This document shows positions 5,727 to 41,087 of a stretch of DNA of 64,000 nt, piece after piece. A model generated the notes under the pieces. That model had not been told where the DNA came from and ran no database searches. It saw only the letters and a list, made by a program, of their open reading frames with translations. Numbering within the stretch: the first letter of the stretch is position 1; every line of letters starts with the position of its first letter. Source of the DNA: Escherichia coli (GTDB taxonomy: Bacteria > Pseudomonadota > Gammaproteobacteria > Enterobacterales > Enterobacteriaceae); NCBI RefSeq assembly GCF_965641715.1, contig NZ_OZ282453.1; one strand, 5' to 3'. Both the position numbers and the translations under genes were made by a program.

Positions 5727-6092
5727 TCATTCGCCGCGATAGATACAACCAGCGGTGCAGGTTTCTTTTACCATCACCGCACTTAACAGCGGCACAACGG
5801 GTTTAACCTGATCCCAAATCCATTTTGCTAAAACTTCGCTGGTTGGGTTTTCCAGACCTGGAATATCATTGAGATAATGGTGATCGAGGCGCTCATAAGT
5901 TGGCTTAAACGCCGCTTTTAGTTCAGCGAAATCGATAATCCAGCCCGTATGCGGATCGACTTCCCCGGTAATTTCCAGTCGCACCATAAAGGAATGCCCG
6001 TGCAGGCGACCACATTTATGCCCTTCCGGGACGTGTGGTAAGCGGTGAGCGGCTTCGAAGGTGAAATCTTTAAATAACGTGGTGGACATCAT
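5727..6092 (-). CDS. queD: 6-carboxy-5,6,7,8-tetrahydropterin synthase (queuosine biosynthesis)
   Basis: ORF 5727..6176; internal start giving [33 protein letters not shown], the QueD/PTPS zinc-binding signature. Confidence 0.9.
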
Positions 6093-6407
6093 AATTTCTC
6101 TACAGGACGATAAAACCGCCGTAGAGTACCGGAAAGGCTGTTTTTTCGCATTATCTAAAACGACTTTGTTGCGCAAAATCGCTGATTTATCTTAATGATT
6201 GGCTAAATTCATTTGTTTTTCATTAGGTTGGTTAATCTATTTTGTTGTTAAAGACTATTGCTAAAACAGGTTAGTCGATTTGGTTATTAGTTATCGCTAT
6301 CCCGTCTTTAATCCACACCGTTCACCCCGTTAACCTTACCTTCTCTTCTGTTTTATGGGCGCTGACAGGGCGCAGAAACAGCTTTGCTTACTGGAACATA
6401 ACGACGC

Positions 6408-8207
6408 ATGACGACACAGGTCCCACCTTCCGCGTTGCTTCCGTTGAACCCGGAGCAACTGGCACGCCTTCAGGCGGCCACGACCGATTTAACTCCCACC
6501 CAGCTTGCCTGGGTTTCTGGCTATTTCTGGGGCGTACTCAATCAGCAGCCTGCTGCGCTTGCAGCGACGCCAGCGCCAGCCGCAGAAATGCCGGGTATAA
6601 CTATTATCTCCGCCTCGCAAACCGGCAATGCGCGCCGGGTTGCTGAAGCATTACGCGATGATTTATTAGCAGCAAAACTGAACGTTAAGCTGGTGAACGC
6701 GGGCGACTATAAATTCAAACAAATCGCCAGCGAAAAACTGCTCATCGTAGTGACGTCAACGCAAGGGGAAGGGGAACCGCCGGAAGAAGCCGTCGCGCTG
6801 CATAAGTTCCTGTTCTCCAAAAAAGCGCCGAAGCTGGAAAATACCGCTTTTGCCGTGTTTAGCCTCGGCGATAGTTCTTATGAATTTTTCTGCCAGTCCG
6901 GGAAAGATTTCGACAGCAAGCTGGCGGAACTGGGCGGTGAACGCCTGCTCGACCGTGTCGATGCCGACGTTGAATACCAGACCGCTGCCAGCGAGTGGCG
7001 CGCCCGCGTGGTTGATGCGCTTAAATCGCGTGCGCCTGTCGCGGCACCTTCGCAATCCGTCGCTACTGGCGCGGTAAATGAAATCCACACCAGCCCGTAC
7101 AGCAAAGACGCGCCGCTGGTGGCGAGCCTCTCTGTTAACCAGAAAATTACCGGGCGTAACTCTGAAAAAGACGTTCGCCATATCGAAATTGACTTAGGTG
7201 ACTCGGGCCTGCGTTACCAGCCGGGTGACGCGCTGGGTGTCTGGTATCAGAACGATCCGGCACTGGTAAAAGAACTTGTCGAACTGCTGTGGCTGAAAGG
7301 CGATGAACCTGTCACCGTCGAGGGCAAAACGTTGCTTCTGAACGAAGCGCTACAGTGGCACTTCGAACTGACCGTCAACACCGCCAACATTGTTGAGAAT
7401 TACGCCACGCTTACCCGCAGCGAAACACTGCTGCCGCTGGTGGGCGATAAAGCGAAGTTACAGCATTACGCCGCGACGACGCCGATTGTTGACATGGTGC
7501 GTTTCTCCCCGGCACAGCTTGATGCCGAAGCGCTAATTAATCTGCTGCGCCCGCTGACGCCGCGTCTCTATTCCATTGCCTCCTCGCAGGCGGAAGTGGA
7601 AAGTGAAGTGCACGTCACCGTTGGTGTCGTTCGTTATGACATTGAAGGCCGCGCCCGTGCGGGTGGTGCCTCCAGCTTCCTCGCGGACCGCGTGGAAGAA
7701 GAGGGTGAAGTCCGCGTCTTTATCGAACATAACGACAACTTCCGCCTGCCCGCTAACCCGGAAACCCCGGTGATTATGATTGGCCCAGGCACCGGCATCG
7801 CGCCGTTCCGCGCCTTTATGCAGCAACGCGCCGCCGACGAAGCGCCGGGCAAAAACTGGCTGTTCTTTGGCAACCCGCACTTTACGGAAGATTTCCTCTA
7901 CCAGGTGGAATGGCAGCGTTACGTCAAAGAGGGCGTGCTGACACGTATCGATCTCGCCTGGTCGCGCGATCAAAAAGAAAAAGTTTACGTACAAGACAAA
8001 CTGCGCGAACAGGGCGCGGAGCTGTGGCGCTGGATCAATGACGGTGCCCACATTTATGTCTGCGGCGACGCTAATCGCATGGCGAAAGACGTTGAGCAGG
8101 CACTTCTGGAAGTGATTGCCGAATTTGGTGGCATGGACACCGAAGCGGCGGATGAATTTTTAAGTGAGCTGCGCGTAGAGCGCCGTTATCAGCGAGATGT
8201 CTACTAA
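6408..8207 (+). CDS. cysJ: Sulfite reductase [NADPH] flavoprotein alpha subunit (599 aa)
   Basis: 599 aa ORF, N-terminus [21 protein letters not shown]; flavodoxin and FAD/NADPH domains; stop overlaps cysI start. Confidence 0.97.
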
Positions 8208-19736: not shown

Positions 19737-19841
19737 AAACAAGGAATTAGCTGATCTTTAATAATAAGGAAATGTTACATCAAGGTTGGTGGGTTGTTTT
19801 TATGGGAAAAAATGCTTTAAGAACAAATGTATACTTTTAGA
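19737..19841 (+). promoter_or_regulatory. CRISPR leader (AT-rich; array promoter and integration signals expected)
   Basis: 105 bp AT-rich non-coding stretch between cas2 stop and first repeat; repeat strand orientation matches crRNA sense on + strand. Confidence 0.7.
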
Positions 19842-20481
19842 GAGTTCCCCGCGCCAGCGGGGATAAACCGTGTCCGAATTACTACACCGCCGAACAAAAC
19901 GCGAGTTCCCCGCGCCAGCGGGGATAAACCATGATCGCCGCCATGATTACTTGCCTTTTTTGTGAGTTCCCCGCGCCAGCGGGGATAAACCGGTCAGCAC
20001 CGCGTGCTCTGCCTGCAGGCTGTCGAGTTCCCCGCGCCAGCGGGGATAAACCGTCTATATCGGTGCATATATCCCCGACGAAAAAGAGTTCCCCGCGCCA
20101 GCGGGGATAAACCGTATTCATATAAATCCTTATTTTAGATACAGCGGAGTTCCCCGCGCCAGCGGGGATAAACCGCCAGCTTCATAGATCTGGCTCACGT
20201 AGAGCGCGAGTTCCCCGCGCCAGCGGGGATAAACCAGCGGCGCATAACTGATAAACAATAAATGCCGCGAGTTCCCCGCGCCAGCGGGGATAAACCGGGC
20301 CATCACGGTTTTATTCAGGTTACTGCAGACGAGTTCCCCGCGCCAGCGGGGATAAACCGCTGCGCGATCCAGCGCTCGACTTTGATCGTGAGAGTTCCCC
20401 GCGCCAGCGGGGATAAACCGGGCGCACTGGATGCGATGATGGATATCACTTAGAATTCCCCGCCCCTGCGGTAGAACACCC
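19842..20481 (+). CRISPR. Type I-E CRISPR array: 10 full 29-bp repeats, 10 spacers (nine of 32 bp, one of 33 bp), plus one degenerate terminal repeat
   Basis: Repeat GAGTTCCCCGCGCCAGCGGGGATAAACCG at 19842, 19903, 19964, 20025, 20086, 20147, 20208, 20269, 20331, 20392 (period 61, once 62); repeats 2 and 7 end in A rather than G; degenerate repeat GAATTCCCCGCCCCTGCGGTAGAACACCC at 20453..20481. Confidence 0.97.
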
Positions 20482-27865: not shown

Positions 27866-29227
<1,362 letters not shown>

Positions 29228-29366
29228 AACGTGAGGAAATACCTGGATTTTTCCTGGTTATTTTGCCGCAGGTCAGCGTATCGTGAACATCTTTTCCAGT
29301 GTTCAGTATGGTGCCTTGCACGGTAATTATGTCACTGGTTATTAACCAATTTTTCCTGGGGGATAA

Positions 29367-30506
29367 ATGAGCGCGGGAAGCCCAAAATTCACCGTTCGCC
29401 GCATTGCGGCTTTGTCACTGGTTTCGCTATGGCTGGCAGGCTGTTCTGACACTTCAAATCCACCGGCACCGGTCAGCTCCGTTAATGGCAATGCGCCTGC
29501 AAATACCAATTCTGGTATGTTGATTACGCCGCCGCCGAAAATGGGGACGACGTCTACAGCGCAGCAACCGCAAATTCAGCCGGTACAGCAGCCACAAATT
29601 CAGGCTACTCAACAACCGCAAATCCAGCCAGTGCAGCCAGTAGCTCAGCAGCCGGTACAGATGGAAAACGGACGCATCGTCTATAACCGTCAGTATGGGA
29701 ACATTCCGAAAGGCAGTTATAGCGGCAGTACCTATACCGTGAAAAAAGGCGACACACTTTTCTATATCGCCTGGATTACTGGCAACGATTTCCGTGACCT
29801 TGCTCAGCGCAACAATATTCAGGCACCATACGCGCTGAACGTTGGTCAGACCTTACAGGTGGGGAATGCTTCCGGTACGCCAATCACTGGCGGAAATGCC
29901 ATTACCCAGGCCGACGCAGCAGAGCAAGGAGTTGTGATCAAGCCTGCACAAAATTCCACCGTTGCTGTTGCGTCGCAACCGACAATTACGTATTCTGAGT
30001 CTTCGGGTGAACAGAGTGCTAACAAAATGTTGCCGAACAACAAGCCAACTGCGACCACGGTCACAGCGCCTGTAACGGTACCAACAGCAAGCACAACCGA
30101 GCCGACTGTCAGCAGTACATCAACCAGTACGCCTATCTCCACCTGGCGCTGGCCGACTGAGGGCAAAGTGATCGAAACCTTTGGCGCTTCTGAGGGGGGC
30201 AACAAGGGGATTGATATCGCAGGCAGCAAAGGACAGGCAATTATCGCGACCGCAGATGGCCGCGTTGTTTATGCCGGTAACGCGCTGCGCGGCTACGGTA
30301 ATCTGATTATCATCAAACATAATGATGATTACCTGAGTGCCTACGCCCATAACGACACAATGCTGGTCCGGGAACAACAAGAAGTGAAGGCGGGGCAAAA
30401 AATAGCAACCATGGGTAGCACCGGAACCAGTTCAACACGCTTGCATTTTGAAATTCGTTACAAGGGGAAATCCGTAAACCCGCTGCGTTATTTGCCGCAG
30501 CGATAA
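29367..30506 (+). CDS. nlpD: Murein hydrolase activator lipoprotein NlpD (LysM + M23 peptidase domains, 379 aa)
   Basis: 379 aa; lipobox LAGCS; Q/P-rich repeats; C-terminal M23 motifs; rpoS promoter is known to lie within this gene (established knowledge, not mapped). Confidence 0.95.
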
Positions 30507-30568
30507 ATCGGCGGAACCAGGCTTTTGCTTGAATGTTCCGTCAAGGGATCACGGGTAGGAGCCACCTT

Positions 30569-31561
30569 ATGAGTCAGAATACGCTGAAAGTTCATGATTT
30601 AAATGAAGATGCGGAATTTGATGAGAACGGAGTTGAGGTTTTTGACGAAAAGGCCTTAGTAGAAGAGGAACCCAGTGATAACGATTTGGCCGAAGAGGAA
30701 CTGTTATCGCAGGGAGCCACACAGCGTGTGTTGGACGCGACTCAGCTTTACCTTGGTGAGATTGGTTATTCACCACTGTTAACGGCCGAAGAAGAAGTTT
30801 ATTTTGCGCGTCGCGCACTGCGTGGAGATGTCGCCTCTCGCCGCCGGATGATCGAGAGTAACTTGCGTCTGGTGGTAAAAATTGCCCGCCGTTATGGCAA
30901 TCGTGGTCTGGCGTTGCTGGACCTTATCGAAGAGGGCAACCTGGGGCTGATCCGCGCGGTAGAGAAGTTTGACCCGGAACGTGGTTTCCGCTTCTCAACA
31001 TACGCAACCTGGTGGATTCGCCAGACGATTGAACGGGCGATTATGAACCAAACCCGTACTATTCGTTTGCCGATTCACATCGTAAAGGAGCTGAACGTTT
31101 ACCTGCGAACCGCACGTGAGTTGTCCCATAAGCTGGACCATGAACCAAGTGCGGAAGAGATCGCAGAGCAACTGGATAAGCCAGTTGATGACGTCAGCCG
31201 TATGCTTCGTCTTAACGAGCGCATTACCTCGGTAGACACCCCGCTGGGTGGTGATTCCGAAAAAGCGTTGCTGGACATCCTGGCCGATGAAAAAGAGAAC
31301 GGTCCGGAAGATACCACGCAAGATGACGATATGAAGCAGAGCATCGTCAAATGGCTGTTCGAGCTGAACGCCAAACAGCGTGAAGTACTGGCACGTCGAT
31401 TCGGTTTGCTGGGGTACGAAGCGGCAACACTGGAAGATGTAGGTCGTGAAATTGGCCTCACCCGTGAACGTGTTCGCCAGATTCAGGTTGAAGGCCTGCG
31501 CCGTTTGCGCGAAATCCTGCAAACGCAGGGGCTGAATATCGAAGCGCTGTTCCGCGAATAA
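30569..31561 (+). CDS. rpoS: RNA polymerase sigma factor RpoS (sigma-38), full length 330 aa
   Basis: ORF 30533..31561; ATG at 30569 gives [25 protein letters not shown]; no premature stop. Confidence 0.97.
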
Positions 31562-31577
31562 GTAAGCATCTGTCAGA

Positions 31578-31609
31578 AAGGCCAGTCTCAAGCGAGGCTG
31601 GCCTTTTTC
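31578..31609 (+). terminator. rho-independent terminator downstream of rpoS
   Basis: aaaggccagtctcaagcgaggctggcctttttctttt: GC stem then T-run. Confidence 0.7.
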
Positions 31610-31680
31610 TTTTGTTTGGGAAGCTTGTGTTTTTGTCGCCTGGATAAGACACGTCAGCGTCCTACCCGGCAATTTGCATC

Positions 31681-32088
31681 CTATGTGTTCATCATCTTGC
31701 GCACCAGCTGCACAAACAGCTCCTGCTCTTCTGCACTCAAACGCCCCAAAAATTCCTCATCCACGCTGTCACCAATCGGTATCGCCGCAGCAAGTATCTT
31801 TTCTCCTTCGGCAGTCAGCCAGACAAAGCGACGCCGCTTGTCAGCGGCATCATGTTCACGTCTGACTAAGCCACGATTCTCCATTCTTGCCAACATTTCT
31901 GCCAACGTTGCTTTGGTGCTGACTGCTGCTTCTATCAGTGCCACCTGTTCGATACCAGGCTTATCAGCAATGGCGCGCATCACCGCATACTGTGGTTTGG
32001 TCAGGTCAGGTAACTCGTGCTGCCAGCGAGCCGTGTGCTGCTGAAAAAGCTGTCGTAACTGATGGAACGCTTTATTTCGTAACGCCAT
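31681..32088 (-). CDS. MarR/SlyA-family transcriptional regulator (135 aa)
   Basis: 135 aa with winged-helix region (KPQYAVMRAIADKPGIEQVALIEAAVSTKATLAEMLARMENRGLVRR); divergent from decarboxylase genes. Confidence 0.8.
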   Translation of the reverse strand: MALRNKAFHQLRQLFQQHTARWQHELPDLTKPQYAVMRAIADKPGIEQVALIEAAVSTKATLAEMLARMENRGLVRREHDAADKRRRFVWLTAEGEKILAAAIPIGDSVDEEFLGRLSAEEQELFVQLVRKMMNT

Positions 32089-32234
32089 GTAAACTCCGGG
32101 CTAATTCTCTGTCGCTATCATAGCGGTTTTTTAGTGACGAAGAAGATGTTGTTACTTTTCAATCCTTGTCGCTGTGGAAATGAAGGAGTATGTTAATAAT
32201 AATGTTCGTATACGAACAATTAAGAGAATAAGCA

Positions 32235-32828
32235 ATGAAACTGATCGTCGGGATGACAGGGGCTACCGGTGCGCCTCTTGGTGTGGCATTACTGCAAGCG
32301 CTGCGGGAGATGCCGAATGTCGAGACTCATCTGGTGATGTCGAAGTGGGCGAAAACCACCATTGAACTGGAAACGCCTTACAGCGCCCGCGATGTTGCTG
32401 CCCTCGCTGACTTCAGCCATAACCCGGCGGATCAGGCGGCGACCATCTCCTCAGGTTCCTTTCGTACCGACGGCATGATCGTTATTCCGTGCAGTATGAA
32501 AACGCTCGCCGGTATCCGCGCTGGTTACGCTGATGGCCTGGTAGGGCGCGCGGCGGACGTCGTGCTCAAAGAAGGCCGCAAACTGGTGCTGGTGCCGCGT
32601 GAAATGCCGCTTAGCACCATCCATCTCGAAAATATGCTCGCACTTTCACGCATGGGCGTGGCGATGGTGCCGCCGATGCCTGCCTTTTATAACCATCCCG
32701 AAACGGTAGATGACATTGTCCACCATGTGGTAGCCCGCGTGCTGGATCAATTTGGCCTCGAACATCCCCACGCCAGGCGCTGGCAAGGATTGCCGCAGGC
32801 CCGGAATTTTTCTCAGGAGAATGAATAA
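32235..32828 (+). CDS. UbiX/Pad1-family flavin prenyltransferase (prenyl-FMN synthase; BsdB/EcdB-like, 197 aa)
   Basis: 197 aa, N-terminus MKLIVGMTGATGAPLGVALLQAL, typical of UbiX flavoprotein family. Confidence 0.85.
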   Translation: MKLIVGMTGATGAPLGVALLQALREMPNVETHLVMSKWAKTTIELETPYSARDVAALADFSHNPADQAATISSGSFRTDGMIVIPCSMKTLAGIRAGYADGLVGRAADVVLKEGRKLVLVPREMPLSTIHLENMLALSRMGVAMVPPMPAFYNHPETVDDIVHHVVARVLDQFGLEHPHARRWQGLPQARNFSQENE

Positions 32829-34255
32829 TGGCATTTGATGATTTACGCAGCTTTTTACAGGCGCTTGATGACCACGGCCAGTTACTGAAAATCAGCGAAG
32901 AGGTGAACGCGGAACCGGATCTGGCTGCCGCTGCCAACGCCACCGGGCGTATCGGCGATGGTGCACCGGCGCTGTGGTTTGATAATATTCGCGGTTTTAC
33001 CGATGCCCGCGTGGCGATGAATACCATCGGTTCCTGGCAGAACCACGCGATTTCCTTGGGCCTGCCGCCAAACACCCCGGTTAAAAAACAGATTGATGAG
33101 TTTATCCGCCGCTGGGATAACTTCCCGATCGCCCCGGAGCGCCGCGCCAATCCAGCCTGGGCGCAGAACACCGTCGATGGTGACGAGATTAATCTGTTCG
33201 ATATCCTGCCGCTGTTTCGTTTAAACGACGGTGATGGCGGTTTCTATCTCGACAAAGCGTGCGTGGTTTCCCGCGATCCGCTCGACCCGGATAACTTCGG
33301 CAAGCAGAACGTCGGCATCTACCGCATGGAAGTGAAGGGCAAGCGTAAGCTCGGCCTGCAACCGGTGCCGATGCACGATATCGCCCTGCATCTGCATAAA
33401 GCAGAAGAGCGCGGTGAAGATCTGCCGATTGCCATCACCCTGGGTAACGATCCGATCATCACGCTGATGGGCGCAACGCCACTGAAATACGATCAATCTG
33501 AGTACGAAATGGCAGGCGCGCTGCGTGAAAGCTCGTACCCGATCGCCACCGCCCCGCTGACCGGTTTTGATGTGCCGTGGGGTTCAGAAGTGATCCTCGA
33601 AGGGGTCATCGAAAGCCGTAAACGCGAAATCGAGGGGCCGTTCGGTGAGTTTACCGGACACTACTCCGGCGGGCGTAACATGACCGTGGTGCGCATCGAT
33701 AAAGTCTCTTACCGCACCAGGCCGATTTTCGAATCGCTGTACCTCGGCATGCCGTGGACCGAAATCGACTACCTGATGGGGCCAGCCACCTGTGTGCCGC
33801 TGTATCAGCAACTTAAAGCCGAGTTCCCGGAAGTACAGGCGGTGAACGCCATGTACACCCACGGCCTGCTGGCGATTATCTCCACCAAAAAACGCTACGG
33901 CGGCTTTGCCCGCGCGGTGGGCCTGCGTGCGATGACCACGCCGCACGGTCTGGGCTACGTAAAGATGGTGATTATGGTCGATGAAGACGTTGACCCGTTC
34001 AACCTGCCGCAGGTGATGTGGGCGCTCTCCTCGAAAGTAAATCCGGCAGGGGATTTGGTGCAGTTGCCGAATATGTCCGTGCTGGAACTCGACCCTGGCT
34101 CAAGCCCGGCGGGGATCACCGACAAGCTGATTATCGACGCCACCACGCCTGTCGCCCCGGACAACCGTGGTCACTACAGCCAGCCGGTGGTGGATTTGCC
34201 GGAAACCAAAGCCTGGGCTGAAAAACTGACCGCTATGCTGGCCACACGTAAATAA
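32828..34255 (+). CDS. UbiD-family (prFMN-dependent) aromatic acid decarboxylase (BsdC/EcdC-like, 475 aa)
   Basis: 475 aa, UbiD-like length and composition; ATGA overlap with upstream UbiX-like gene. Confidence 0.85.
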   Translation: MAFDDLRSFLQALDDHGQLLKISEEVNAEPDLAAAANATGRIGDGAPALWFDNIRGFTDARVAMNTIGSWQNHAISLGLPPNTPVKKQIDEFIRRWDNFPIAPERRANPAWAQNTVDGDEINLFDILPLFRLNDGDGGFYLDKACVVSRDPLDPDNFGKQNVGIYRMEVKGKRKLGLQPVPMHDIALHLHKAEERGEDLPIAITLGNDPIITLMGATPLKYDQSEYEMAGALRESSYPIATAPLTGFDVPWGSEVILEGVIESRKREIEGPFGEFTGHYSGGRNMTVVRIDKVSYRTRPIFESLYLGMPWTEIDYLMGPATCVPLYQQLKAEFPEVQAVNAMYTHGLLAIISTKKRYGGFARAVGLRAMTTPHGLGYVKMVIMVDEDVDPFNLPQVMWALSSKVNPAGDLVQLPNMSVLELDPGSSPAGITDKLIIDATTPVAPDNRGHYSQPVVDLPETKAWAEKLTAMLATRK

Positions 34256-34265
34256 GGAGAACAAG

Positions 34266-34502
34266 ATGATTTGTCCACGTTGTGCCGATGAACAGATTGA
34301 AGTGATGGCGAAATCGCCGGTGAAAGATGTCTGGACGGTATATCAGTGCCAGCATTGCCTTTATACCTGGCGCGATACCGAACCGCTGCGCCGTACCAGC
34401 CGCGAACATTATCCCGAAGCGTTCCGCATGACGCAGAAAGATATTGATGACGCGCCAATGGTGCCGAGCATTCCGCCGCTGCTGGCGGAAGGTAAGCGCT
34501 AA
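34266..34502 (+). CDS. Small zinc-ribbon subunit of phenolic acid decarboxylase (BsdD/EcdD-like, 78 aa)
   Basis: 78 aa with CPRC...CQHC motif; immediately downstream of UbiD-like gene. Confidence 0.7.
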   Translation: MICPRCADEQIEVMAKSPVKDVWTVYQCQHCLYTWRDTEPLRRTSREHYPEAFRMTQKDIDDAPMVPSIPPLLAEGKR

Positions 34503-34542
34503 TAAAAAGTGCCGGGTAGTGGCTTTGCTTTACCCGGCCTCA

Positions 34543-35199
34543 TTACTTTATTTTATAAAATGACAGCCGCCCGCTTTTCGGCGATCCGGTATCAATATAA
34601 ATCTGGTTAGCGAACGTCTGAATGTTATCAAACATCATATGTCCAAATATAAAATAATCAGCGCCGTTTATTTGTTGTAACTCGCCATTAAGCGATTTCT
34701 GCACACGATCAACAGGCCAGAGTAATTCGCTCTCCGCTATTTCTTTACCAAAGAGATATTCACTCCCCGGATAATCTGCATGTACGATGACATATTTTAT
34801 GTTGTCGTTAGTGATTTCAATAATATGTGGAAGGTGATGGAATTTCAGCAACAGATCTGTAGCTTCTTTTTGCTCTGAATCATTTAAATCGAAAAACCAG
34901 TCACCACCGCTGGCAAGCCACATATTGCCATCGCCGGTCGCGAACGCATCCAGCGCCATTGCTTCGTGGTTGCCTTTAACGGAGATAAACCAGGGCTGGT
35001 TTAGCAGGCGCAGGACGTTAAGACTCTCCGGCCCACGATCAATATTATCGCCGACAGAAATAAGTAAGTCGGTTTCGGGGAAAAAAGAGAGTTGATGTAA
35101 GCGGGATTGTAATAACTGATATTCACCATGAATATCACCAACGACCCATATATGGCGATAGTGATGGGCATTGATTTTTTGATAGCGTGTAGATGGCAT
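34543..35199 (-). CDS. pphB: Serine/threonine protein phosphatase 2 (218 aa)
   Basis: 218 aa; metallophosphatase motifs GDIHG, GDNIDRG, GNHE. Confidence 0.9.
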   Translation of the reverse strand: MPSTRYQKINAHHYRHIWVVGDIHGEYQLLQSRLHQLSFFPETDLLISVGDNIDRGPESLNVLRLLNQPWFISVKGNHEAMALDAFATGDGNMWLASGGDWFFDLNDSEQKEATDLLLKFHHLPHIIEITNDNIKYVIVHADYPGSEYLFGKEIAESELLWPVDRVQKSLNGELQQINGADYFIFGHMMFDNIQTFANQIYIDTGSPKSGRLSFYKIK

Positions 35200-35304
35200 G
35201 GTTTTACCCTGTAAAATAAGCTTTCCTATTATACAGGGTATTTTTATTTGATTCGTCAGCTGTAGATAATATTCCCGATAGTATTTTTCTACCGGGAATT
35301 ATAA

Positions 35305-37866
35305 TTACACCAGACTCTTCAAGCGATAAATCCACTCCAGCGCCTGACGCGGGGTGAGTGAATCCGGATCGAGGTTTTCCAGTGCCTCGACCGCAGGCGA
35401 GGTTTCTTCCGGTACGGACAGCAAAGACATTTGCGTACCATCCACTTGCGTAGCGGCGGCGTTCGGCGAAATGCTTTCCAGCTCACGCAGTTTTTGCCGT
35501 GCGCGCTTAATAACCTCTTTTGGCACGCCGGCCAGAGCTGCAACCGCCAGGCCGTAGCTTTTGCTCGCCGCGCCATCCTGCACGCTATGCATAAAGGCAA
35601 TGGTGTCGCCGTGCTCCAGTGCATCGAGATGCACGTTGGCGACGCCTTCCATTTTCTCCGGTAACTGGGTCAGCTCGAAATAGTGGGTGGCAAACAGCGT
35701 CAACGCCTTAATCTTATTCGCCAGATTTTCCGCGCACGCCCATGCCAGTGACAGACCATCGTAAGTGGACGTTCCACGCCCGATCTCATCCATCAATACC
35801 AGACTATATTCGGTGGCGTTATGTAAAATATTGGCGGTTTCAGTCATCTCCACCATAAAGGTTGAGCGCCCGGAAGCCAGGTCATCTGCCGCGCCTACGC
35901 GGGTAAAGATGCGATCGATAGGTCCAATCTCGACTTTTTGTGCCGGTACATAGCTGCCGATGTAGGCCATCAGCGCAATCAGTGCGGTCTGGCGCATATA
36001 GGTACTTTTACCGCCCATGTTCGGGCCGGTAATAATCAACATCCGGCGCTGCGGTGACAGATTCAGCGGGTTGGCGATAAATGGCTCGTTCAGCACCTGT
36101 TCAACCACCGGATGGCGGCCTTCGGTAATGCGAATGCCCGGTTTATCAATAAAGGTCGGGCAGGTGTAGTTCAGGGTATAGGCCCGTTCCGCCAGGTTCA
36201 CCAGCACGTCGAGTTCCGCCAGCGCGCTCGCGCTCTGTTGCAACGCTTCCAGATGCGGCAACAGCAGGTCGAACAGCTCTTCATAAAGCTGTTTTTCCAG
36301 AGCCAGTGCTTTGCCTTTTGAAGTGAGGACTTTATCTTCGTACTCTTTTAGCTCTGGAATGATGTAGCGCTCGGCGTTTTTCAGCGTCTGGCGACGCATA
36401 TAGTTGATAGGTGCCAGATGGCTTTGCCCACGGCTGATTTGAATGTAGTAGCCGTGCACCGCATTAAAGCCAACTTTTAGCGTGTCCAGGCCGGTACGTT
36501 CACGCTCGCGGACTTCCAGACGCTCCAGATAATCGGTCGCGCCGTCAGCCAGCGCGCGCCACTCATCCAGCTCTTCGTTATAGCCCGATGCGATAACACC
36601 ACCGTCGCGTACCAGCACCGGCGGTGTGTCGATGATTGCTCGCTCCAGCAGATCGCGCAGCTCGGCAAACTCGCCCATCTTCTCACGTAGCGCCTGTACC
36701 GGTGCACTATCGACAGTTTCTAACTGCGCACGCAGCTCCGGCAGTTGCTGGAAAGCGTGGCGCATACGGGCCAGATCGCGTGGGCGAGCAGTTCGTAAAG
36801 CCAGACGTGCCAGAATACGTTCCAGGTCGCCGACCTGACGCAGTACCGGCTGTAGCCCGGCGGTGAAATCCTGCAATGCGCCAATAGTTTGCTGGCGCTC
36901 AAGCAACACGCGGGTATCGCGCACTGGCATATGCAGCCAGCGTTTCAGCATACGGCTGCCCATCGGCGTGACGGTGCAGTCGAGCACAGAAGCCAGCGTA
37001 TTTTCCGCACCACCCGCCAGGTTCTGGGTGATTTCCAGATTACGACGCGTCGCGGCATCCATAATGATGCTGTCCTGCTCACGTTCCATGGTGATGGAAC
37101 GAATATGCGGCAGAGTCGTACGTTGGGTATCTTTCGCATACTGCAACAGACAACCGGCAGCACAAAGTCCGCGCGGCGCGTTCTCGACGCCAAAACCGAC
37201 CAGATCGCGAGTGCCAAATTGCAGATTCAACTGCTGGCGCGCGGTGTCGATTTCAAACTCCCACAGCGGGCGACGGCGCAGGCCGCGACGGCCTTCAATT
37301 AACGACATTTCAGCAAAATCTTCTGCATACAGCAATTCCGCAGGATTAGTGCGTTGCAGTTCTGCCGCCATCGTTTCCCGGTCAGCCGGTTCGCTCAGGC
37401 GAAAACGCCCGGAACTGATATCCAGCGTCGCGTAGCCGAAACCTTTGCTGTCCTGCCAGATAGCCGCCAACAGGTTGTCCTGACGCTCCTGCAACAGGGC
37501 TTCATCGCTGATGGTGCCTGGCGTAACGATACGCACAACTTTGCGCTCAACCGGACCTTTGCTGGTCGCCGGATCGCCAATTTGTTCGCAGATGGCAACG
37601 GACTCTCCCTGATTCACCAGTTTGGCGAGGTAGTTTTCCACCGCATGGTAGGGAATCCCCGCCATCGGGATCGGCTCTCCCGCTGAAGCGCCGCGTTTGG
37701 TCAGTGAGATATCCAGCAGTTGCGACGCACGTTTTGCGTCGTCATAAAACAGTTCGTAAAAGTCACCCATCCGATAAAACAGCAGGATCTCGGGATGCTG
37801 GGCTTTCAGCTTGAGATACTGCTGCATCATTGGCGTATGGGCGTCGAAATTTTCTATTGCACTCAT
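35305..37866 (-). CDS. mutS: DNA mismatch repair protein MutS (853 aa)
   Basis: 853 aa, N-terminus [40 protein letters not shown]; Walker [10 protein letters not shown]. Confidence 0.98.
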
Positions 37867-38111
37867 GGGGTTATGTCCGGTTCCCTGATATTAAATGGGG
37901 TGTGATGGTTTTTATTTTCGTTGTAATCACATAAGGCGCACATGATACCGGAGTTAATCATTTCAGGGGAAGAAGCGAACGGCGAGTTCTTGATGCTGGT
38001 TCCGGGAAAGATGCTGTTTTGCAGCTTTTGCGTGATGCTTATGAAGCAAGTACGCAAAATTGCGTCGGTTGAATAAACCTCCTCCTTCAGAGCCATAGTC
38101 CCCTTTCAAAT

Positions 38112-38134
38112 TAAGTTGTAGTATAAATACACCT
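38112..38134 (+). promoter_or_regulatory. Candidate NsrR-type operator upstream of ygbA
   Basis: aagttgtagtataaatacacctt resembles the NsrR inverted-repeat consensus (AAGATGCATTT...AAATGCATCTT), right arm 9/11; about 20 bp upstream of ygbA ATG. Confidence 0.3.
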
Positions 38135-38152
38135 TAAGAGTATGGAGGCAGC

Positions 38153-38497
38153 ATGTCCGGCAAGCGTATCTCTCGTGAAAAACTGACGATTAAAAAAATG
38201 ATCGATCTTTATCAAGCGAAATGCCCGCAGGCGTCAGCGGAGCCGGAGCATTACGACGCGCTGTTTGCCTACGCGCAAAAGCGGCTGGATAAATGTGTGT
38301 TCGGCGAAGAGAAACCAGCCTGTAAGCAGTGTCCGGTGCACTGTTACCAGCCTGCAAAGCGTGAAGAGATGAAACAGATTATGCGTTGGGCCGGGCCGAG
38401 AATGCTGTGGCGTCATCCAATCTTAACCGTGCGTCATCTCATCGATGACAAGCGTCCGGTGCCGGAGTTGCCAGAAAAATATCGTCCAAAGAAATAA
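38153..38497 (+). CDS. ygbA: Nitrous-oxide-stimulated-promoter family protein YgbA (114 aa, cysteine-rich)
   Basis: 114 aa, N-terminus MSGKRISREKLTIKKMIDLYQAKCPQ; CxxC motifs; divergent from mutS. Confidence 0.88.
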   Translation: MSGKRISREKLTIKKMIDLYQAKCPQASAEPEHYDALFAYAQKRLDKCVFGEEKPACKQCPVHCYQPAKREEMKQIMRWAGPRMLWRHPILTVRHLIDDKRPVPELPEKYRPKK

Positions 38498-38535
38498 ATC
38501 TGCCGGAGAGCCATACTCTCCGGCAAATAAGGCGT

Positions 38536-38964
38536 TTACGCTTTGGTGGCAATCAGGATGGCTGATGCTTTGATCAATGCAATAACGCGTGAGCCAGTGG
38601 TGAGTTTCATTTCATCCTGACTTTCATTTGTTACCACTGCCACAATTTCAAAACCCGCATCCGTTTTGATATGGACAGTGGCGTTCACTGCGCCTTCGGT
38701 GATTGTCGACACGCTGCCAGCAAACTGGTTGCGAGCAGAGAATTTCAGTCCACAGTCTTCCGTTGCCAGCGTTACCCACGGGGCTTTAATCAGGGCAATC
38801 GCTTCTTTCCCTTTCGCCAGACCCAGAGCCTGCTGGCTGCTGTGAGTCACAATTGCCACCAGCTTTGCACCACCTGCCAGCGTCAGTTCTACTTCGTCAT
38901 TCACCGCACCCATTGCTACTGCGCTAACTGTTCCGGTTAATTGATTTCTTGCTGAAACTGCCAT
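38536..38964 (-). CDS. Standalone tandem-Mop (TOBE-domain) molbindin-like protein (142 aa)
   Basis: ORF 38536..39003; likely start at 38964 (GGAGG RBS 5 nt upstream) giving MAVSARNQLTGTVSAV; two internal repeats each beginning SARNQ(L/F)(T/A)G(T/S)VS and ending ALIKA, the Mop/TOBE molybdate-binding fold. Confidence 0.7.
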   Translation of the reverse strand: MAVSARNQLTGTVSAVAMGAVNDEVELTLAGGAKLVAIVTHSSQQALGLAKGKEAIALIKAPWVTLATEDCGLKFSARNQFAGSVSTITEGAVNATVHIKTDAGFEIVAVVTNESQDEMKLTTGSRVIALIKASAILIATKA

Positions 38965-39008
38965 ACTGCCTCCTTTCATTGAATGTTGATCGAGTATAAC
39001 CACATCTG

Positions 39009-41087
39009 TTAAATCAATGCCGATTTATCAATTCCCAGCCGCTTCATCCGTGACAGCAGGGTCGTGCGTTTCAGCCCCAGACGTTGCGCAGCGCCTTTAG
39101 GCCCGGCAACCACGCCGTTAGTTTCTTTCAGCACGCGAACAATCAACTGATATTCATCTTCGCCCTCCTGAGCGACAACCGTTGCGGCAGGCGGCGTTTC
39201 AGGCTCCGGTAAAGCAATATCTGGCAATGACAGCTGCAGCACGTTGCCGCGTGTTAGCAATACCGCGCGCTCAATGACGTTTTCCAGTTCGCGTACGTTA
39301 CCCGGCCACTCCATATTGCTCAAGGTGCGCAACGTCTCGGCAGGAATGCTGTCGATATTGCGCCCCAGACGACGGGCAATTTTGAAGGTAAAGGCTTTCG
39401 CCAGCAGCGGAATATCTTCTGGACGCTCGCGTAGTGGCGGAAGGTGAATCGGGAATACGTTCAGGCGGTAATAGAGATCGCTACGGAACTCACGGTCGGC
39501 GACCATTTTTTTCAGATCGCGGTTAGTCGCGGCGATTAGACGCACGTCCGTCTGAATGATTTTGTTGCTGCCGAGGCGTTCAAACTCCTGTTCCTGCAAT
39601 ACACGCAGCAACTTCGGCTGTAACTCCAGTGGCATATCGCCCACTTCGTCGAGGAACAGGGAGCTTTTATCCGCCAGTTCAAAACGACCGATACGCTGGG
39701 CGCTGGCACCGGTAAAAGCCCCACGCTCATGACCAAACAGATCGCTCTCCAGCAATCCGGCAGGCATCGCCGCGCAGTTCATTTTGACCATGCGGCGATT
39801 ATTACGCCCACTGAGATTATGGATAGCACGGGCAATCAGCTCTTTACCCGTGCCAGTTTCACCGAGGATCAGCACGGTACTGTCACTTTGCGCCACCATT
39901 TCAACTTGTTTAAGCACGCTGTACATGGCTTCGCTGCGGCCAATAATCTCGCCAAATTCACTATCAACATTGTTGAGCTGCTCGGTCAGGGCGAGGTTTT
40001 CATCAACCAGCCGTTCTTTCAGACGATGGATTTCCTGATAGGCGAGGGCGTTATCGACAGCGATTGCCACACGTTCGGCAATCTGGCGCAGTAAATTCAG
40101 ATTGGTAGTGGTAAACACTTTCTCTTCACATTGCGCCAGTTTCAGCACGCCCAGCATGGTGTCGCCAGACATCAGCGGTAACAGGCACAAAGTTTGAATC
40201 TGGTTGCCCCAGGTATCGAACAACATGCGTTCATAGGGGGCTAAATCATCCCGCTCGTGGAGATTAATCAGCAGCATCTCTTTACTTTTGAACACGCGTT
40301 CGGTGAGGGTTCCGGCTTCATCGACTTCGCTCTGTTCGTGGGCGGGATGCTGTTTATCAAGATAGTGAGTGGAGTAGATGTTGAGTTTGTTTTTACGGTG
40401 GCTGCGTAAGACGATACTGATATCGTCAATATCGAAATAGTAATGGATTTCTTTGGCGACTTCGCTGACCAGTTCGTCCATATCCAGGCGGGAAAGCACC
40501 GCGTTGGTGATGGCGACCAGGATGCGGAAGTTATCGCGTTCCCGGCATAACAACTCATAGTCGACATTGTTAACGACGCGACTCTGGATTTGTTCGGTGA
40601 CGACAGAAACGATCTGCGTAAATGTTTGCAGACGATTGAACTCTTTTTCGCTCCAGGGGCGATCGTCATAACGAATAAATTCACAGCCACCAAAAATATG
40701 CCCTTCCGCCGCCAGTGGCATCAGGCAATAGTGACCAAATTTTGGGTATAGCCCACCTGCGGCCAGCTGCGGCCAGGTTTCACAAAATTCTTCGTAACTG
40801 CAATGCAGCGTATCAGGGCGCGACAAAATGCTGCGTACCGGACCGTGTGCCAGAACAGTTTCGTCTTCATATTTAATGGGGGTGTCTTTTTCACGCGATG
40901 CGTAATAAGACGCACGTTGAGTCTGCGCTTGCCACAACACAATAGCCGCGTTGTCGGCGAGCGCAGAACGCTTTACCAGTTGCGAAAGAGCCTCACACAG
41001 CGAGGCCAGATCGGGCTGCTGCAATAGTGTCCGAGTGATGTCGAACAACCCTTGCTGTCCGAGATCACTCATCGGTGTATATGACAT
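39009..41087 (-). CDS. fhlA: Formate hydrogenlyase transcriptional activator FhlA (sigma-54 dependent, 692 aa)
   Basis: ORF 39009..41123; likely start giving MSYTPMSDLGQQGLFDITRTLLQQ; AAA+ sigma-54 activator motifs GETGTGKE and GAFTGA; C-terminal HTH. Confidence 0.95.
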   Translation of the reverse strand: MSYTPMSDLGQQGLFDITRTLLQQPDLASLCEALSQLVKRSALADNAAIVLWQAQTQRASYYASREKDTPIKYEDETVLAHGPVRSILSRPDTLHCSYEEFCETWPQLAAGGLYPKFGHYCLMPLAAEGHIFGGCEFIRYDDRPWSEKEFNRLQTFTQIVSVVTEQIQSRVVNNVDYELLCRERDNFRILVAITNAVLSRLDMDELVSEVAKEIHYYFDIDDISIVLRSHRKNKLNIYSTHYLDKQHPAHEQSEVDEAGTLTERVFKSKEMLLINLHERDDLAPYERMLFDTWGNQIQTLCLLPLMSGDTMLGVLKLAQCEEKVFTTTNLNLLRQIAERVAIAVDNALAYQEIHRLKERLVDENLALTEQLNNVDSEFGEIIGRSEAMYSVLKQVEMVAQSDSTVLILGETGTGKELIARAIHNLSGRNNRRMVKMNCAAMPAGLLESDLFGHERGAFTGASAQRIGRFELADKSSLFLDEVGDMPLELQPKLLRVLQEQEFERLGSNKIIQTDVRLIAATNRDLKKMVADREFRSDLYYRLNVFPIHLPPLRERPEDIPLLAKAFTFKIARRLGRNIDSIPAETLRTLSNMEWPGNVRELENVIERAVLLTRGNVLQLSLPDIALPEPETPPAATVVAQEGEDEYQLIVRVLKETNGVVAGPKGAAQRLGLKRTTLLSRMKRLGIDKSALI

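Follow-up and report, generated by a model that had tools for sequence, protein, structure and literature searches.

Between ygbA and fhlA, the window (the whole 64,000-nucleotide stretch of Escherichia coli DNA analysed here) carries mop, a gene whose product is a ModG-type molbindin: it consists of two tandem Mop/TOBE domains and nothing else. As an explanation of the whole locus, we consider it probable that this product is a ModG-type cytoplasmic buffer for molybdate or tungstate, that the gene is ancestral at this position, and that it is the last member of the hyp-fhlA unit. The domain identity, the predicted fold, the ligand residues, the purifying selection, the synteny, the presence or absence among genomes and the single deletion junction are shown by the comparisons below.

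The mop gene and its reading frame

Positions 38498-39008 are exactly the DNA that separates the ygbA stop (38497) from the fhlA stop codon (39009-39011), and they contain a single ORF, on the minus strand like fhlA. An earlier note on this DNA had described a 142-aa ORF with a good ribosome-binding site, and this description held. The mop CDS (38536-38964, minus strand; 142 aa plus stop) runs from an ATG at 38964-38962 to a TAA at 38538-38536, and a Shine-Dalgarno sequence read from the DNA, AAAGGAGG (38969-38976, minus strand), ends 4 nt before the ATG. The mechanical ORF list gave mop as 155 aa from an upstream GTG; that GTG is not conserved, and conservation supports the ATG at 38964-38962 as the start, from which 142 aa are encoded. 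All 22 of the 22 extracted enterobacterial orthologs are exactly 142 aa long and share the N-terminus M-(A/S/T)-(V/I)-SARN, and (A/T)GGAGG is conserved at nearly all orthologous mop loci. In strain A16 the same CDS is RefSeq WP_000301062.1.

Read along the plus strand of this chromosomal segment, the gene order is mutS (35305-37866, minus strand), ygbA (38153-38497, plus strand), mop, fhlA, then hypE and hypD. The gene immediately upstream of mop is fhlA (39009-41087, minus strand), encoding the formate hydrogenlyase (FHL) transcriptional activator, as identified from the ORF list and the RefSeq annotation of the syntenic A16 locus. On the other side ygbA is convergent with mop and encodes 114 aa, compared with 117 aa in K-12.

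In the syntenic RefSeq loci, PGAP names the formate hydrogenlyase activator 'flhA'/'FlhA' instead of fhlA/FhlA; flhA/FlhA is the name of the flagellar export gene. RefSeq also flags the activator gene as frameshifted in FDAARGOS_943, and norV and ygcS as frameshifted in strain A16.

Domain architecture, fold and ligand residues

Pfam returned two matches to the Mop/TOBE family (PF03459). Domain 1 (aa 4-66; 38767-38955, minus strand) was found with an E value of 1.6e-17 and carries the motifs SARN, GAVN, T40 and K60-A61, and domain 2 (aa 76-137; 38554-38739, minus strand) was found with an E value of 6.2e-16 and carries SARN, GAVN, T112 and K132-A133. Together they cover the whole 142-aa protein, with no other Pfam domain. 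The two internal repeats that the earlier note had seen by eye are real, as the halves of the protein are 43% identical (E 3e-18), and the NCBIfam model TIGR00638 (Mop) scored 142 bits against a cutoff of 55 over two stretches of the protein. Among solved structures the best match was the cytoplasmic molbindin ModG of Azotobacter vinelandii (1H9J), to which the mop protein aligned over its full length (138 aa) with 49% identity and an E value of 5e-33; the bit scores were 117 against ModG and 61 against ModE. An AlphaFold model of the mop protein reached a pLDDT of 96.3 and was matched by Foldseek to ModG 1H9J with a TM score of 0.95 and an rmsd of 1.3 A, where the input alignment of the model contained the ModG sequence itself and no templates were used; a profile search likewise used a profile that included the ModG sequence. 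Against the di-Mop domain of ModE the model gave TM scores of 0.83-0.90 (33-36% identity). Pfam, NCBIfam, the ModG match and the fold thus agree with the assignment as a standalone tandem-Mop/TOBE molbindin that had been made from the letters alone.

In Tub, Mop and ModG proteins the type-1 surface site contacts the oxyanion through the backbone of Ala20-Val21-Asn22, and the buried type-2 site does so through Ser4, Arg6, Ser/Thr40, Lys60 and Ala61 (PMC11980592). The mop protein has S4, R6, A20, V21, N22, T40, K60 and A61 at these positions in domain 1, and S76, R78, A92, V93, N94, T112, K132 and A133 in domain 2. All sixteen positions are invariant among 22 enterobacterial sequences (the window protein and 21 orthologs), and most of them are still invariant after ModG and two distant homologs are added.

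Pfam and NCBIfam found neither a DNA-binding domain nor an ATPase domain in the protein. Its match to the NCBIfam ModE model NF007957 is limited to positions 124-261 of 263, with 88 bits against a cutoff of 369, and ModE from the PDB aligned over residues 125-263 only. Identity with ModE was therefore rejected, the winged-helix N-terminal DNA-binding domain being absent. Similarly, ModC and WtpC aligned through their C-terminal TOBE part alone (47-49 bits against cutoffs of 285-440), and identity as ModC or an ABC 'transporter' was rejected because the ABC ATPase domain is absent.

Synteny and selection across Enterobacteriaceae

A survey with one genome per species found 49 mop loci. At 36 of these 49 other-species loci the gene immediately upstream of mop, in the same orientation, is fhlA, preceded by hypD-hypE and usually with ygbA downstream of mop. 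The fhlA-mop pair occurs in E. albertii, Citrobacter, Pseudocitrobacter, Raoultella, Klebsiella, Kluyvera, Pluralibacter, Enterobacter, Lelliottia, Yokenella and Kosakonia, and it is also present in one cryptic-clade Escherichia. The complete order hypD-hypE-fhlA-mop-ygbA is conserved across E. albertii, Citrobacter, Klebsiella/Raoultella, Kluyvera, Enterobacter, Kosakonia and others. Protein identity declines smoothly with host distance, from 99% to about 80%. With dN/dS values of 0.02-0.11 and 68 of 142 residues invariant among the 22 enterobacterial sequences, mop is under strong purifying selection.

The earlier note had the gene wedged into a variable hotspot. The hotspot is documented (PMC7232297) and presence does vary within E. 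coli, but mop is no unusual insertion, since it occupies an ancestral position that is syntenic in many genera; on this ground the insertion hypothesis was rejected. The comparison of the fhlA-ygbA interval across strains that the note had proposed confirmed that the interval varies within E. coli (514 versus 48 nt), with the difference being a loss in K-12 rather than an insertion.

The arrangement has exceptions. In Phytobacter spp. and Kosakonia sp. S29 the order is hypE-mop-ygbA with no fhlA detected between, which suggests that mop stayed in place when fhlA was lost or relocated. In Serratia, Cedecea and Edwardsiella the orthologs (69-73% identity) have unrelated surroundings; the Serratia gene, for instance, has dapA, bcp, a permease gene and a LysE-family gene as neighbours and no FHL neighbours. 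In some Salmonella enterica serovars a mop copy of 87% identity lies apart from fhlA (6001-6429 of the extracted loci), between a fimbrial usher/chaperone cluster with a DUF6429 gene and an IS66 TnpB gene. DNA homology of this copy is confined to window positions 38536-39001 (467 nt), that is, the gene and a 37-nt leader, a unit that nearly coincides with the 466-bp E. coli indel described below. Given these contexts, the link of mop to FHL is not obligatory.

Loss of mop from K-12-type E. coli

The mop segment was present in 1892 of 5426 complete E. coli genomes (35%), as one chromosomal copy, and the match covered at least 80% of the query in 1889 of these 1892 carriers. Every carrier row sampled was annotated as a CDS, either as 'TOBE domain-containing protein' or as 'molybdopterin-binding protein'. 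About 65% of the complete genomes, including MG1655 and J53, have the flanks and lack mop, so the earlier note, in which K-12 was not known to have a standalone molbindin, was correct for MG1655/J53-type genomes. As the gene has been lost from the K-12-type two thirds of E. coli, it is dispensable.

The variable block (38495-39008) comprises mop, its leader and the ygbA stop/terminator, and measures 514 nt here; in K-12-type strains it is reduced to 48 nt, so that the net difference amounts to 466 bp. MG1655, FDAARGOS_943 and strain 272, which are divergent gene-lacking strains, have an identical indel junction. The window, E. albertii and the cryptic-clade Escherichia sp. MOD1 all have the long form, with 606 bp between the anchors. 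Since the long form is found in other species and the gene-lacking strains share one junction, mop is ancestral and K-12 has the derived state, reached by a net loss of 466 bp that left a single junction and is most simply explained by a single event. In the K-12 allele ygbA is three codons longer (117 versus 114 aa; E. albertii also has 114 aa), and a comparison of window positions 38485-38530 with positions 2120-2180 of the extracted MG1655 locus showed that K-12 has kept a related hairpin whose stem carries a compensatory change (GAGAG/CTCTC versus GACAG/CTGTC). The ygbA length and the stem change indicate that the K-12 allele arose by deletion plus a small replacement, not by clean excision. 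A simple microhomology deletion via TAAATC (38495 and 39010) was rejected, as it would leave no hairpin, while K-12 keeps a 48-nt hairpin-bearing block.

The same polymorphism has served as a PCR marker: Ewers et al. (2014) amplified an fhlA-mutS fragment of 1673 bp from CFT073 versus 1208 bp from MG1655/EDL933, and saw the long form in none of their strains but those of pattern III, to which CFT073 belongs (PMC4209514). The difference between the two amplicons matches the 466-bp net difference measured here. Lerminiaux et al. placed the gene under island acquisition at the fhlA-mutS hotspot and labelled it 'modE' (PMC7232297).

The mutS-rpoS interval of the window (~28500-35200) is EDL933-like, with pphB, hydroxyarylic acid decarboxylase genes B, C and D and a MarR-family regulator, its content being deduced by collinearity with the strain A16 locus (28802-32320). 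An EDL933-like mutS-rpoS arrangement together with c3292/mop differs from the association reported by Ewers et al. (2014), where the long amplicon occurred only with pattern III.

Expression signals around mop

The spacer between fhlA and mop (38965-39008, minus strand) is 44 nt long, has no significant structure (fold z-score 0.14), and measures 38-56 nt in most genera. A terminator scan found no terminator-like site between the two genes. Downstream of mop lies an intrinsic terminator (38488-38528, minus strand) with a 14-bp GC-rich stem (38528-38498) and a U-rich tail, the hairpin of which is shared with the convergent ygbA. Its RNA folds with -25.4 kcal/mol (z -4.46), and 0 of 200 shuffled sequences were as stable. 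In K-12-type strains the corresponding hairpin is located directly 3' of fhlA. The short unstructured spacer, together with a terminator only after mop, makes mop the likely last gene of the fhlA transcript, and the hyp(B-E)-fhlA transcription unit therefore most likely ends with it.

The spacer also contains a conserved GGTTATACT element (38993-39001, minus strand), a candidate promoter element that lies 34 nt upstream of the ATG and includes a -10-like TATACT (38998-38993). In Escherichia, Citrobacter, Pseudocitrobacter and Pluralibacter a GGYTATAC(T) or TATAA element is found at this same distance (-34), and GGYTATAC(T) is found at -35 in the Salmonella copies that have moved, the rest of whose upstream DNA is unrelated. 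The TATACT may mark a promoter of mop itself, or the element may be a regulator site. A scan of 38000-39600 gave no full sigma-70 promoter, and inspection by eye found no acceptable -35 for TATACT.

Other known signals were searched for around the gene or throughout the window. Rfam gave no match in 37800-39400 at E<=1, and thus neither a Moco riboswitch nor any other known RNA. Sigma-54 (FhlA-type) promoter matches numbered 24 in the window, below the chance mean of 29, and none was convincing at mop. One sigma-54-like sequence, TGCCACCAGCTTTGCA (38854-38869, plus strand), lies inside mop in antisense orientation with one mismatch that breaks the essential GG to GC, and is most likely meaningless. 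The ModE operator pattern TATAT-N7-TAYAT had four matches in the window, which is chance level, with none near mop. The perfect palindrome TATATCGGTGCATATAT (20056-20072) was discarded as a chance match to the ModE box within a CRISPR spacer. A type I-E CRISPR array is present at 19839-20480, with about 11 repeats, extracted as 31-nt copies, and a 61-nt period.

Proposed function and alternative readings

By homology to A. vinelandii ModG, the mop protein would assemble into a trimer that corresponds to a hexamer of Mop domains. This trimer could bind up to eight molybdate or tungstate ions, two on the threefold axis, in type-1 sites at the surface, and six at the domain interfaces, in buried type-2 sites, and would thereby buffer or store the oxyanion in the cytoplasm. 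The protein would be made upon induction of the formate regulon, when the molybdoenzyme FDH-H must be loaded. The oligomeric state, the binding of oxyanions, the co-transcription with fhlA and any contribution to FDH-H and FHL are inferred. A functional link between mop and fhlA/hyp is plausible and is backed by the family-wide synteny. K-12, which lacks mop, makes fully active FHL, so any contribution of mop would be conditional at most. In the searchable literature on the enterobacterial mop protein we found no functional study or experiment, only marker or locus-map mentions.

Maximal expression of fdhF and hyc in K-12 needs ModE-molybdate, along with FhlA and formate (PMC3149613), which makes the FHL system molybdate-sensitive. 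A stronger proposal would give mop an ancestral and dedicated place in the enterobacterial formate regulon: made together with FhlA, its product would sense molybdate or hand it over for assembly of the FDH-H cofactor, or tune the ModE/FhlA-dependent expression of hyc and fdhF. We regard this proposal as rather unlikely.

The protein might instead be a regulator and not a store, sensing molybdate and modulating the formate regulon. It could do so through contact with FhlA, through mixed oligomers with the homologous ModE di-Mop domain, or through competition with ModE for molybdate, which would set the level at which ModE-dependent activation of hyc/fdhF begins. Such a role would fit the tight and persistent linkage of mop to fhlA (36 of 49 loci) and not to fdhF, moa or mod genes, the resemblance of its fold to the ModE di-Mop domain (TM 0.88-0.90, 34-36% identity), and the dependence of hyc/fdhF expression on ModE-molybdate (PMC3149613). 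However, neither a DNA-binding domain nor any other effector domain is present in the protein, which is far closer to the storage protein ModG than to ModE (117 versus 61 bits) and keeps the full ligand set in both domains as ModG does, unlike the second domain of ModE (ADNQ). Phytobacter moreover has mop without fhlA, and Serratia has mop without FHL neighbours. We therefore hold a regulatory role to be unlikely.

A role mainly as a trap for tungstate ('TudG' reading) was considered as well. Here the protein would sequester tungstate that enters via ModABC, keeping W out of the cofactor of FDH-H and other molybdoenzymes. Enterobacteria are gut dwellers, which counts for this possibility. Mop-family sites bind tungstate and molybdate about equally, di-TOBE proteins of gut species are often predicted to handle W (PMC11980592), and crystals of the ModE di-Mop domain with bound tungstate exist (1H9R). 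Preference for W over Mo is, however, not separable by sequence, W was assigned in the literature on the basis of TupA/WOR being present (PMC11980592), and no tungsten-specific gene adjoined mop in the loci examined; we consider a role mainly as a tungstate trap quite unlikely.

The two remaining readings deny mop a role tied to its neighbours, or any role, and both are strongly disfavoured by synteny and selection. One would have mop as a horizontally acquired passenger in the fhlA-mutS hotspot of some E. coli lineages, functionally unrelated to its neighbours. The interval is a documented hotspot (PMC7232297), mop is found in only 35% of complete E. coli genomes, and a copy has moved to a fimbrial/IS66 island in Salmonella, the moved DNA (38536-39001) being almost the same as the E. 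coli indel. The GC3 of mop is also slightly low, at 47.6% versus 57-62% for its neighbours, but a foreign composition was rejected, as this deviation is only mild and the overall GC content is 50.6% versus 52.4% for the window. The same position and orientation in E. albertii, one cryptic-clade Escherichia and more than 10 other genera, and the decrease of protein identity with host distance (99% to 80%), speak against a passenger. The site has no mobile-element genes and no flanking repeats beyond the 6-nt TAAATC, and the divergent gene-lacking strains share one common junction, as one loss predicts, so that we consider a passenger very improbable. A decaying or non-functional remnant, which the dispensability of mop (about 65% of complete E. 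coli genomes lack it) might suggest, is effectively refuted by the fixed length of 142 aa, the 68 of 142 invariant residues, the dN/dS of 0.02-0.11, the conserved ribosome-binding site and the intact gene (coverage of at least 80%) in 1889 of 1892 carriers.

Naming and significance

The preferred reading, a ModG-type buffer, concerns a gene that was already known: mop is an annotated, previously noted and uncharacterised member of the ModG class. Its public names are inconsistent and include 'transporter', 'molybdopterin-binding protein' and 'molybdate transport system regulatory protein'. As the protein has no DNA-binding or ATPase domain, the label 'modE' (PMC7232297) is a misnomer, and 'transporter' and 'molybdate transport system regulatory protein' are wrong or misleading. 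Besides correcting these labels, our analysis adds that mop is ancestral and not inserted, that it is under purifying selection with its ligand positions intact, and that it is a probable operon partner of fhlA.

K-12 thus lacks a strongly conserved, predicted molybdate-binding gene that lies directly behind fhlA in most Enterobacteriaceae. To our knowledge, all work on FHL and its regulation by molybdate has been done in K-12. What was learned in K-12 may not hold for ExPEC-type E. coli, Citrobacter or Klebsiella if the mop protein affects the supply of Mo, the sensitivity to tungstate or the expression of hyc/fdhF. Tungstate has been proposed against enterobacterial molybdoenzymes, and mop could matter there; another possible relevance is to hydrogen and formate metabolism in the gut. 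Should the gene prove to be a component of the formate regulon, the textbook model of molybdate control of FHL, which was built on K-12 alone, would lack a natural player. That player would persist in B2/F-type (ExPEC) E. coli and most Enterobacteriaceae, where the distinction between B2/F and A/E rests on two published accounts (PMC4209514; PMC7232297) and the pattern may be blurred in the recombination-prone mutS region.

Comparison with known molbindins

The closest known system is ModG of A. vinelandii, which like the mop protein has two tandem Mop domains in about 140 aa and no more, with the ligand motifs SARN, GAVN, T-x-x-S and K-A present in both domains. Its structures (PDB 1H9J/1H9K/1H9M) were reportedly described by Delarbre et al. 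in 2001. The ModG trimer with eight oxyanions is, for the E. coli mop protein, predicted by homology. The setting differs: ModG belongs to the mod/nitrogenase-related molybdate system in Azotobacter, whereas mop adjoins fhlA in the hyp-fhlA cluster. Azotobacter modG is controlled by ModE, according to the title of a paper cited as reference 41 in PMC11980592, and contributes to molybdate homeostasis and nitrogenase synthesis (PMC11980592). In contrast to this context of the founding member, which is not strictly defining, mop has no mod-gene linkage and no ModE-box-like site, and its neighbours are fhlA and ygbA.

The C-terminal di-Mop domain of E. coli ModE (PDB 1H9R/1H9S, 1O7L, 1B9M) has the same tandem Mop fold and binds molybdate or tungstate. 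ModE differs by its N-terminal DNA-binding domain, which is absent from the mop protein, and its second Mop domain has a degenerate N-terminal motif (ADNQ versus SARNQ), whereas both domains of the mop protein keep the full ligand set, as in ModG. The single-domain molbindins Mop/MopII (C. pasteurianum 1GUG, S. ovata 1FR3) and the 'tungbindin' Tub (E. limosum 9BEB), 68-78 aa in length, match each half of the mop protein, with E values of 2e-9 to 3e-5 and TMt of 0.84-0.92. They have one domain per chain and form hexamers; in the mop protein two domains are fused, so a trimer would equal that assembly. The di-TOBE 'TudG/ModG' class is a recognised storage architecture (PMC11980592). Finally, c3292 of CFT073, RefSeq WP_000301062.1 'TOBE domain-containing protein', is the same gene as mop, at the same locus and with the same polymorphism.
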